A stretch of 36,916 bases of DNA. Origin: a virus. Lineage: Duplodnaviria; Heunggongvirae; Uroviricota; Caudoviricetes. The notes under the pieces are model-generated. The model was not told where the DNA came from and made no database searches. It was given only the letters and a program-made list of their open reading frames with translations. Position 1 is the stretch's first letter. The number at the start of each line of letters is the position of its first letter. The stretch lies in IMG/VR virus record IMGVR_UViG_2534681999_000017, one strand, 5' to 3'. Shown one piece after another: positions 1 through 4,565 of the stretch. The translations under genes were made by a program, and so were the position numbers.

Positions 1-1932
1 AAGCGGAGGTAATACACCGTAAGAGCTGGAAAAACCGTGCAGAAGTGGAACTGGCCACACTAACGTGGGTGGACTGGTATAACAATCGACGATTGCTGGG
101 AAGGCTGGGCCATACTCCTCCGGCAGAAGCAGAAAAAGCTTATTATGCTTCCATCGGAAACGATGATCTGGCAGCCTGAGTTCACAGATAAAACACTCTC
201 CAGGAAACCCGGGGCGGTTCAGCAGATTATTCCCTGCATCCCCTGTCAGGGTGACACCCTGCGGCAGAGAGGAAACCGGCCAGTAAAGCCCCATGACATA
301 CTGGTTTGCCACCAGGTCGCCAGGTACTTTAAAACGACAACTGATTAAACCACCATTTTTCAGCAGTTCAGCACCAGTACCGGCATCATGATCCAGATAC
401 CAGGATGATTTACCTGTTTCCTTGGTCAGTTTCATTGCCTTACCACCTGTGCCTCCTGCATCACTGATAATTTCAGCTTTACCGCCAGCCGGCTCCCAGC
501 CCTGGGCTTTCAGATTTCCTTCTGACTCACTGACACGATAAGACAGCAGTGTTGTGGTTACTGCTTCAGTTTCTGAAGGTGACGGCACTGGTGCTTCAGT
601 TTCAGAAGATGGAACATCGGCTTTTACTGTGGTTCGCCCCGCATGAGTCAGAACTGCCGTGGCCAGACGGTCGGAAATAATCCCACGACGTGCCCATGAA
701 CTGAAATGGCTGGCCCGGTCCGCAGATGTCCAGGTGGCGGCACTGTTACGCCACGTTGAGCCGTAATAACCAATGGATTCAATATCCGGGTCTTCTGCCG
801 GATTGTTGGTGGGTACATTCGCGTCATTTTCATCTGTCATTAATGGAACGAAATGAATGTTTTTATCTGTTTTGTTTTTGTAGCCGCCATAGATTGCCTG
901 GTATGCCGGTTCATTTTTCTGTTTCCAGAAATACGTGGTATCGCCACAAATCCACGGAACGCCAGCAGCACTGCCACCGGTACACTGTTCCGCCTGTTCA
1001 GCCAGGTCTGCGCGGAATTTTTCCACCATCGCCAGAAACAGCGCGGAATGCTCCGTCGGCTTCGCATCAATATCAAACTCGCCCTGCATCCACACCACAG
1101 CAAGCAGGCGGTTTTTCGGGTTCTTCGCCAGTGCCGCTTTTGTCCGGCTGATTAAGTCCTTATACAGCGGCTTATCCACACCCCAGCGGGCTGAGTCCTC
1201 TGAAGCACCCGTGCTGTCACTGTACGTGCCGTCAGCACCCGCCGTGAATGCAGAACCACCACGGCAGCAGGGAACCAGCAGAATCCCCGCATCTGCCGGA
1301 ATAAACGGCAGCAGTTTTTTGGCAATGTGAAGCCCCTGACCCACGGTGCCATATTGCCCTTTAGCCACATCCGCTTTCGGGTGATTTTTTCCACTCATAT
1401 CCTGCACATCATGCAGACAGTGGTCGGCCAGAATGATGTCGTTATACTGACAGGCTTTACCTCCCGGCGTGACTGTACTGCGACGGGCTAACTGCATAAT
1501 ACGCGGTTCGGGGCGGTCATATGTCTCCGGCAGTGGCAGACCTTCACCGTAAGCCATACCGTTTGACTGACCAGCAAGAACCACCACGTAATACCAGGAA
1601 GGGGAGCTGGAAGCAGTTTCATTTCCTGACGGACGGGTATGTGTTTCAGCATTATCCCAGTCTGACGGTTCAGCAGTACCGGCAACATCAGCACTTAACG
1701 GAATGACCGCACCAATACCCGCTCCGGTAATTTCCACACTCGGATCACCGGATACTGGCCTTACCCACAGGCAATCCCGTGTATTAAAACTGATGAGACA
1801 GTCAGCAAATGTCATTCCTCCTTTTGTTTCGGCCGGAGGAAAGGGAGCCTCAAGAAATGCCGCTGTACCACCGGAAACTTTAACAGTAAAGTTTCCGGGC
1901 ATTGATGATAGTTGAACCCATTTGGACGTCAT
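1..1932 (-). CDS. nanS: NanS-type sialate O-acetylesterase (SGNH/SASA hydrolase) with N- and C-terminal extensions; 3' end unresolved, frame open to window start
   Basis: ATG at 1932 with AGGAACAGG 9 nt upstream and an in-frame stop at 1963-1965; 644 codons without a stop. Contains VVLAGQSNGMAYGEGLPLP, HDVQDM, QYGTVGQGLHIAKKLLPFIP, LVPCCRGGSAFTAG, WMQGEFD, CGDTTYFWK, SHFSSWARRGIISDRL, co-linear with E. coli NanS/YjhS as recalled. Confidence 0.8.
   Translation of the reverse strand, partial: MTSKWVQLSSMPGNFTVKVSGGTAAFLEAPFPPAETKGGMTFADCLISFNTRDCLWVRPVSGDPSVEITGAGIGAVIPLSADVAGTAEPSDWDNAETHTRPSGNETASSSPSWYYVVVLAGQSNGMAYGEGLPLPETYDRPEPRIMQLARRSTVTPGGKACQYNDIILADHCLHDVQDMSGKNHPKADVAKGQYGTVGQGLHIAKKLLPFIPADAGILLVPCCRGGSAFTAGADGTYSDSTGASEDSARWGVDKPLYKDLISRTKAALAKNPKNRLLAVVWMQGEFDIDAKPTEHSALFLAMVEKFRADLAEQAEQCTGGSAAGVPWICGDTTYFWKQKNEPAYQAIYGGYKNKTDKNIHFVPLMTDENDANVPTNNPAEDPDIESIGYYGSTWRNSAATWTSADRASHFSSWARRGIISDRLATAVLTHAGRTTVKADVPSSETEAPVPSPSETEAVTTTLLSYRVSESEGNLKAQGWEPAGGKAEIISDAGGTGGKAMKLTKETGKSSWYLDHDAGTGAELLKNGGLISCRFKVPGDLVANQYVMGLYWPVSSLPQGVTLTGDAGNNLLNRPGFPGECFICELRLPDHRFRWKHNKLFLLLPEEYGPAFPAIVDCYTSPPTLVWPVPLLHGFSSSYGVLPPL
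3..179 (+). mobile_element. IS3-family (rve/DDE integrase-core) transposase, C-terminal fragment cut by the window edge
   Basis: Frame ending at TGA 177-179 reads AEVIHRKSWKNRAEVELATLTWVDWYNNRRLLGRLGHTPPAEAEKAYYASIGNDDLAA, a typical IS3-family OrfB C-terminus (W-x-DWYNN-RR ... PP-AE-E-YY). Confidence 0.45.
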
Positions 1933-2031: not shown

Positions 2032-2592
2032 TTATTTTTCCGAAACGCTCGCAGGATAATAACGATAAAGGGTTGAAAGGCCGATATCAAAAATAAGTGC
2101 CACCTGTCTTCGACTGACACCCCCGGCCAGTAAACGCCCGACCTGCTCGTATTGTTCCTGCGTGAGACGACGGGGTCTGCCGCCGGTTCGTCCCCTTTCA
2201 CGGGCAGCTGCAAGACCAGCCCGTGTCCGTTCGACAATTAATTCACGCTCCATTTCTGCCAGCGCACCCATTATGTGAAAAAAGAAGCGCCCCATGGGGG
2301 TTGACGTATCAATGTTGTCAGTAAGACTACGAAAATTTATCCCCTGTTGCTGTAATTCATCTGTCAGCGCAACAAGGTGGCGCATACTGCGCCCCAGCCT
2401 GTCCAGTTTCCAGACCATCAGTGTGTCACCGGGTTTTAGTTTCTTCAGTGCCCGCTTCAGTCCCGGCCGCTGTGTCGTTTTACCACTCATTTTATCTTCA
2501 AAAATCTGCTCACATCCTGCACATTCCAGCGCATTTCTTTGTAAACCTGTGTTCTGGTCATTTGTTGATACGCGTATATAGCCAATCAGCAT
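2032..2592 (-). CDS. gin: Serine DNA invertase, Gin/Pin/Cin/Hin family
   Basis: 186 aa, MLIGYIRVSTNDQNTGLQRNALECAGCEQIFEDK...VWKLDRLGRSM...GINFRSLTDNIDTSTPMGRFFFHIMGALAEMERELIVERT; near-identical motif order to Mu Gin and e14 Pin. Confidence 0.93.
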   Translation of the reverse strand: MLIGYIRVSTNDQNTGLQRNALECAGCEQIFEDKMSGKTTQRPGLKRALKKLKPGDTLMVWKLDRLGRSMRHLVALTDELQQQGINFRSLTDNIDTSTPMGRFFFHIMGALAEMERELIVERTRAGLAAARERGRTGGRPRRLTQEQYEQVGRLLAGGVSRRQVALIFDIGLSTLYRYYPASVSEK

Positions 2593-3653: not shown

Positions 3654-4565
3654 TTACACTGAACTTACCGTTCTCCAGGCATTATTAATATAAATCTGAA
3701 CCGGGCGATAATAGACCCCACCGATATTGTCCGCAGACCGGGAGCCGGTTTCCTGCACGTTAATTCCGGAAAGCATACAACCGGAAGGTGCGCTGTAATT
3801 CCATGACATTTCATTGCCTCCGGGTGAATGATAGCTCTGTGCTCCAAGCTGAACATTCTGTACATACCGGCCATCTGCGGTTGACTGCGTCATTCCTGAC
3901 GTGATGTTGATATCCAGCGTTCCGTCAAAAGGAACACCATTAATATTTCTTGGGGTGGCGAGTCTGTTTGCTGCCACGGCGGTTCCACCCGATGGCAGGG
4001 CATCAGCAGCCTTATTTACCGTTTCCCGTAAACCAACGTTATCGATAAAAGCGCCTTTATCCGGAATGTCTGCGCCGTTCTGCTCCCTGCGCAGGTAACG
4101 GTTATCACCTTCGCTTTTGCTGTAAACATCCAGATTATTACGGGCGGTTCCCGCATTCTCCAGGTCGGCAAGGTTCTGATCCTTCGCCAGAGCATTAACG
4201 TCACCGGGACCAAGACTGTTTTTTGTGGCAAGCGCCCCAAGACCAAGATAACCACGGGCAAGACGCTGGGCTTCCGCACCGGCATCAGCAATTTCTTTCA
4301 GGTTGTTTTTCCGGGAAAAGGCATTCGCAGCGATAATGGCTTTAATGGACAGCGTAAGCTGGTTTAACTGCGCCTTATCCGGCTGAATACTGGCTTCAGC
4401 CAGAATATTCAGCAGTTCGGCCTGGAGAATATTCAGCCAGTCCTGACCAATCCAGCTGATACCTTTTTGTCCGTCACCTTCGGTAAACCAGGTGGTGGTA
4501 TTACTCTGCGCCGGTGCCAGCGCAGGCATATTCGCCACGCCGGAATTATTATCAACATGGAACAT
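3654..4565 (-). CDS. Tail fibre protein (Mu S-like), constant part fused to the currently expressed tip
   Basis: True start MFHVDNNSGVANMPALAPAQ at 4565 (ATG overlaps the upstream stop as TAATG); C-terminus ...GVYYRPVQIYINNAWRTVSSV is a P2 H / Mu S-type fibre tip. Confidence 0.85.
   Translation of the reverse strand: MFHVDNNSGVANMPALAPAQSNTTTWFTEGDGQKGISWIGQDWLNILQAELLNILAEASIQPDKAQLNQLTLSIKAIIAANAFSRKNNLKEIADAGAEAQRLARGYLGLGALATKNSLGPGDVNALAKDQNLADLENAGTARNNLDVYSKSEGDNRYLRREQNGADIPDKGAFIDNVGLRETVNKAADALPSGGTAVAANRLATPRNINGVPFDGTLDINITSGMTQSTADGRYVQNVQLGAQSYHSPGGNEMSWNYSAPSGCMLSGINVQETGSRSADNIGGVYYRPVQIYINNAWRTVSSV
3886..4034. repeat. Inverted repeat arm 2 of the invertible segment
   Basis: Reverse complement of this stretch aligns with 2663-2815; homology starts exactly at the shared gix half-site. 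Confidence 0.8.
4023..4048. other. gix-like crossover site B, inside the S tail-fibre coding sequence
   Basis: TTCCCGTAAACC AA CGTTATCGATAA, compared with the Mu gixL sequence as recalled (TTCCTGTAAACC GA GGTTTTGGATAA); inverted relative to site A. Confidence 0.6.

Follow-up and report, generated by a model that had tools for sequence, protein, structure and literature searches.

The left end of the window, by which we mean the whole 36,916-nucleotide stretch of a Caudoviricetes record (IMG/VR IMGVR_UViG_2534681999_000017) that was analysed, carries the terminal part of an IS629 element inserted at codon 571/572 of a prophage-borne esterase gene and oriented opposite to that gene. The insertion separates the gene from the last 108 of its 679 codons, cutting through the C-terminal jelly-roll domain and leaving the catalytic domain whole. 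We put at roughly 0.88 the probability that this arrangement results from a simple insertion of IS629 into the 3′ part of a NanS-p-like esterase gene of the type present in the Mu-like prophage Sp18, giving rise to a truncated fusion.

The element at window positions 1–221 is IS629, a member of the IS3 family with a DDE (rve) transposase. These 221 nt constitute the right-hand part of the element (IS629 positions 1090–1310, plus strand), which is cut by the window edge, and they are identical at 221 of 221 positions to the IS629 of phage Stx2a_F349 (L003:1601–1821), whose genes are annotated as IS629 OrfA and OrfB. A megablast search against phage records aligned window 1–225/229 to annotated IS629 or IS3-family transposase sequences at 99–100% identity (E ~1e-111), and in E. 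coli genomes the left end of the window finds matches in thousands of copies of IS629/IS1203. The plus-strand frame at 3–179 translates to AEVIHRKSWKNRAEVELATLTWVDWYNNRRLLGRLGHTPPAEAEKAYYASIGNDDLAA and terminates at a TGA codon at 177–179, corresponding to the C-terminal 58 codons of OrfB plus the stop. The earlier note, which was made from the letters and their translations, had recognized an IS3-type transposase C terminus here, and translation, NCBIfam and Pfam all agree with this assignment. The peptide aligns to profile positions 327–369 of the 369 positions of NCBIfam NF033516 (transpos_IS3; E 1e-8) and is also matched by the Pfam integrase-core models rve_3 and rve_2; the scores of these models lie under their whole-protein cut-offs because the peptide is truncated, the visible part of OrfB being its C-terminal 58 residues.

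The right terminal inverted repeat of IS629 occupies positions 197–221 (plus strand; TGAACCGCCCCGGGTTTCCTGGAGA when read on the minus strand). It runs ...GGGGCGGTTCA up to base 221 (in its longer form ...CCCGGGGCGGTTCA), with the tip ...GGTTCA and the terminus ...TTCA ending at 221. Comparison of the two ends of IS629 gives 22 matches in 25 positions (13 identical, 3 mismatches, 9 identical). The annotated end of IS629 in phage 1717 falls on the same base as window position 221, inside the interval of about 180–260 in which the earlier note had expected the end of the IS. The visible 221 nt are identical to IS629 (isoform IS1203) in the OrfB C terminus, the inverted repeat and the TG...CA ends, and the difference is one of extent, with the window containing just the final 17% of the 1,310-bp element.

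On the minus strand, the interrupted gene begins with an ATG at 1932, and its frame remains open without a stop to base 1 (644 codons), passing through the same bases that encode the transposase on the other strand, as had been noticed before. The encoded protein is identical to ECs_4993 of E. coli O157:H7 Sakai through residue 571, with the first difference at residue 572; the native part, codons 1–571 of 679, lies at 220–1932 (minus strand). Intact ECs_4993 comprises 679 amino acids and is annotated by PGAP as a 'DUF6645 domain-containing protein'. The NanS-type (SGNH/SASA) catalytic domain is composed of residues 104–428 (649–1623, minus strand), includes the GQSN block and is intact in the window; it matches the chromosomal sialate O-acetylesterase NanS/YjhS (PDB entry 3PT5, E 1.9e-118), and the Pfam SASA match covers residues 116–312. 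At the C terminus, residues 459–674 of the intact protein match the C-terminal domain of phage NanS-p (PDB entry 6YP6, E 1e-111), and Pfam DUF6645 matches residues 524–642. The NanS of E. coli K-12 shares the homologous catalytic domain and its GQSN block. However, that enzyme is a single-domain protein of ~330 amino acids, whereas the prophage protein adds a distinct N terminus and a C-terminal jelly-roll, half of which is deleted here. At the DNA level, the gene is ~80% identical to Stx2a-phage genes annotated as yjhS or 9-O-acetyl-N-acetylneuraminic acid deacetylase. NCBIfam yielded no model for the esterase, and its matches in PHROGs are to families without an assigned function.

The identification of the gene as nanS-p, made in the earlier note, thus holds for the shared catalytic and C-terminal domains and fails for the canonical Stx-phage allele, the gene being the Mu-like counterpart represented by ECs_4993. 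It is prophage-borne, yet it does not lie downstream of stx in the late region of a lambdoid phage; its position is in a Mu-like prophage, with a DNA invertase gene on one side and the com/mom end on the other. DUF1737 was not detected as an N-terminal domain, and the N terminus of the esterase is unalignable with that of the NanS-p of phage PA52. Because the N terminus is devoid of DUF1737 and because of the Mu-like position between invertase and com/mom, the gene is identified as a NanS-p-like paralogue of the Mu-like prophage rather than the canonical allele. In NanS-p of phi24B, DUF1737 has been identified as the capsid-binding (decoration) domain (2026 preprint). In its place stand residues 1–103 of the esterase (1621–1932, minus strand), which have no Pfam match; for residues 1–110, none was found even at E values up to 10. 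These N-terminal ~100 residues could be a different virion-attachment module, suited to the Mu-like particle.

From position 220 on, the DNA is 100% identical to that of Sp18 in the Sakai strain, and below this position the two sequences are unrelated. The comparison with the intact allele thus places the break in homology at 219/220, where it meets the IS629 terminus at 221. Across the junction the window reads ...GGGGCGGTTCA followed by GCAGATTATT, as against ...GAACGATGCCA followed by GCAGATTATT in Sakai. The CA at 220–221 is common to the IS tip and the uninterrupted target, and IS bases 220–221 supply the remainder of codon 571 (CTG). The intact gene runs 108 codons past the junction, so that the IS is situated inside the gene, in its last sixth, and not after it; of the earlier proposal that the IS had inserted 'into or just after' the 3′ end of the esterase, the first half is therefore retained and the second abandoned.

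The insertion removes about half of the jelly-roll. The remnant comprises residues 459–571 (220–558, minus strand), leaving 113 residues of the 216-residue match to 6YP6, and the DUF6645 match in the window protein ends at profile position 49 of 119. A carbohydrate site composed of Y510, Y515, Y540 and F611 has been proposed for vb_24B_21 (PMC10462455); a constant offset of 35 maps these aromatics to Y545, Y550, Y575 and F646 in the present protein, with Y575 and F646, half of this proposed sugar-binding set, falling in the deleted part. The insertion leaves unchanged both the 5′ region of the gene and the catalytic domain with its GQSN block.

Past residue 571, the reading frame enters the IS in the antisense direction. 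The IS-derived tail, residues 572–644 (NRPGFPGECF...VLPPL; 1–219, minus strand), is open to the window edge, and joining a full IS629 to window 222–1932 places a stop five codons past that edge, with the predicted end ...CKDH and a total length of 648 amino acids (571 native and 77 IS-derived). The earlier expectation of a truncated or fused product is borne out by this fused frame, in which the native residues end at 571 of 679. The tail had been described as Trp/Pro-rich; its 73 residues include 12 Pro and 11 Leu and only 2 Trp, so that Pro/Leu-rich is the appropriate description. An antisense stretch of 73 codons without a stop has a chance expectation of ~3%, and the open frame is a fixed property of the IS629 sequence.

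When the 147 residues straddling the junction were searched against the protein database, hundreds of E. coli proteins were found to share the tail alone, and the other matches shared the native DUF6645 part alone. The identical 77-residue tail ends the retrieved proteins P0005, P0018, P0030, P0043 and P0047 as well as the nanS-p allele of PA52. Among the tail-bearing examples retrieved are a TonB-dependent receptor plug protein, a PF00149 phosphoesterase, transposase fragments and an 85-residue 'hypothetical protein'; all retrieved tails are identical (NRPGFPGECF...VLPPLCKDH), and they confirm the predicted stop. No Pfam match was obtained for the tail. Because unrelated E. coli proteins end in the identical sequence, the tail is best regarded as a generic by-product of IS629 landing in a given orientation and frame. 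The suspicion voiced in the earlier note, that the translation over 1–180 is antisense read-through, was thus well founded, since the tail lies in IS629 and also ends unrelated proteins disrupted by IS629. A reading of the open antisense frame as a real extension of the esterase was rejected.

The same frame has left its trace in public databases. The tail is open in IS629 at large, and therefore the 77-codon antisense frame (window 1–219 on the minus strand plus 15 nt) is annotated as the C terminus of many unrelated 'proteins'; in P0043 it figures as a stand-alone hypothetical protein of 85 amino acids, with 17 member sequences. Such annotation of the antisense orfB 3′ frame is a recurrent artefact.

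Insertions of IS629/IS1203 inside nanS-p of Stx2a phages have already been reported (PMC10462455). The allele described as 'sequence 16 / CTR3' encodes 634 amino acids, compared with 645 in the intact form, and occurs in 18 of 59 phages, all of them from O157 (PMC10462455). PA52, one of the CTR3 carriers, has a 1,310-bp IS629 in the orientation opposite to nanS-p; it follows native residue 557, which corresponds to ECs_4993 residue 591, and a 4-bp AAAG duplication flanks it. This insertion resembles that in the window in placing IS629 within the jelly-roll region of a NanS-p-type esterase, with the same orientation, the same frame and the same 77-residue tail (NRPGF...CKDH). However, the CTR3 gene belongs to a lambdoid Stx phage, whereas the window contains the paralogue of a Mu-like prophage, and the flanking target sequences differ. 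The insertion in the window is located 20 codons upstream, after residue 571 (536 in 933W numbering), and removes more of the jelly-roll, including the aromatic residue equivalent to Y540. The two insertions, which are independent events in paralogous esterase genes, are thus 60 nt apart at homologous positions. Since the chance of a matching orientation and frame is 1 in 6, we treat the pair as a coincidence unless a survey shows clustering; that the jelly-roll coding sequence is an IS629 hot spot, or that selection favours esterases without the carbohydrate-binding module, is a decidedly doubtful explanation.

The uninterrupted site is common and the junction rare. A 301-nt probe with the uninterrupted site at its centre matched 159 complete E. 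coli records at at least 99% identity, whereas megablast searches with junction-spanning windows against 5,426 complete E. coli genomes returned no place covering both sides. The exact 34-nt junction had no match in the genome, viral or metagenome contig collections, and neither the exact 648-residue reconstruction nor the 644-residue window product was present in a collection of 15 billion proteins. Since the intact allele occurs in 159 records and the junction in 0 of 5,426, the intact state is ancestral and the insertion private to the source strain, in which it is probably recent. A further sequence, P0088 (96 amino acids, found in nr only), is a DUF6645 fragment from another E. coli that is frameshifted directly after residue A572 (…GDAGNNLLA followed by IVLHPDRRKRPE…). 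The frameshift is equivalent to window ~215–225, a few bases from the IS629 insertion point, and may represent a coincidence, a sequencing error or a footprint.

The remainder of the window is collinear and 100% identical with Mu-like prophages of many EHEC genomes, including Sp18. In Sakai, ECs_4993 has the same neighbours, namely the invertase gene and the invertible tail-fibre segment, and the DNA is identical from 220 on, but there, as in 159 other records, the gene of 679 codons is uninterrupted. The left end of the prophage lies at ~36389 (TGTAACCAGGTGAATC... on the minus strand; also read TGTAACCAGGTGAATCATTTGATACC) and is followed by ~526 nt of ddpB/ddpC up to 36916, so that the prophage interrupts the D,D-dipeptide ABC transporter operon, whereas the Sakai prophage is located in sorM. 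No complete E. coli genome of the collection has the prophage at the ddpB/ddpC site, which is consistent with the strain-specific integration sites of this transposable phage (PMC7430833). Window 222–36389 (36,168 nt) and the 2,580 nt found beyond the site in Sakai together approximate the 38,759 bp of Sp18.

Next to the esterase gene, the prophage encodes a Gin/Pin-type DNA invertase of 186 amino acids (2032–2592, minus strand). A 185-nt inverted repeat, 77% complementary between its copies at 2653–2837 and 3859–4043, bounds the segment adjoining the invertase gene, which holds alternative tail-fibre C termini and tail-fibre assembly genes. This invertible segment is a host-range switch of the prophage, similar to the G segment of Mu. 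At this segment, the alignment with some otherwise identical genomes is broken in two, which may reflect the opposite orientation of the segment.

We propose that transposition brought a 1,310-bp IS629 into the 3′ portion of the esterase gene of an Sp18-type Mu-like prophage, in the orientation opposite to the gene, such that its right inverted repeat came to abut codon 571. This event would have removed native residues 572–679, the C-terminal half of the lectin-like jelly-roll, from the product, and the reading frame would continue antisense into the IS for 77 codons without a recognisable domain. The expected product would be an esterase of 648 amino acids with a broken binding module and an active-looking catalytic domain. 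The IS itself would be complete; beyond its left end we would expect ...GATGCCAGCA and the remaining 108 codons of ECs_4993, so that the displaced codons and ~2.3 kb of the prophage right end would lie on the far side of the element, with a duplication of 3–4 bp. From the alignment with Sakai Sp18, the GCA at 222–224 is the expected right copy of a 3-bp target duplication, and a second GCA would be predicted at the left IS end, because a GGA duplication of 3 bp flanks IS629 in phages 1717 and Stx2a_F349; that of the PA52 copy has 4 bp (AAAG).

Alternatively, IS629 could mark the end-point of a deletion or inversion that arose when two IS629 copies recombined or when the IS mediated an adjacent deletion; the 3′ end of the esterase gene and the right end of the prophage (com/mom, attR) would then be missing or located elsewhere in the genome. 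Such a history draws on the fact that the window stops inside the IS, with the far side outside it, and on the ~17–21 recombinable IS629 copies of EHEC genomes (PMC7430833). However, a junction at an intact IS terminus is predicted by both readings, the reference IS629 copies are simple insertions with duplications of 3–4 bp, and all of the visible prophage is complete and collinear with Sp18; we therefore consider a rearrangement unlikely. A chimeric join of IS629 and prophage sequence made during assembly would agree with the absence of the junction from the 5,426 complete E. coli genomes and the contig collections searched. Nevertheless, the break matches the true IS629 terminus with single-base precision, as transposition yields, and a mis-join within a repeat would not stop just where the IS tip meets unique DNA; an artefact of this kind is highly improbable and was rejected. 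That the esterase gene ends naturally near 180–220, with the IS just downstream and no coding loss, is an alternative wording of the earlier note for which no result speaks, and its probability is negligible given the Sakai alignment, an intact allele (ECs_4993) that is 108 codons longer, a DUF6645/6YP6 domain cut midway and the lack of a stop codon at the junction.

After a simple insertion of IS629, the truncated esterase would either be unstable or still de-O-acetylate free Neu5,9Ac2 without substrate targeting. Residual activity on free Neu5,9Ac2 is plausible because single-domain NanS is a functional esterase (literature summarised in PMC8065619). Together, the tail and the misfolded remainder of the jelly-roll may make the protein less stable. 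Substrate targeting, attributed to the proposed binding module, would be expected to disappear; for the jelly-roll itself, binding is a proposed role (PMC8065619).

The insertion is an ordinary gene disruption, of the same kind as those already described for sister genes on Shiga-toxin phages; what is new is the insertion site, the IS being a very common one and disruptions of this sort having been published for the gene family. In annotations, the locus is best described either as a pseudogene or as a C-terminally truncated NanS-p-like esterase interrupted by IS629, and annotation as a novel long esterase or as an esterase–transposase overlap would be inappropriate. IS629 positions serve as strain markers in EHEC, and this insertion, absent from 5,426 complete genomes, could mark the lineage of the source strain. 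As a natural truncation, it could also be used for testing whether esterase function needs the jelly-roll domain.
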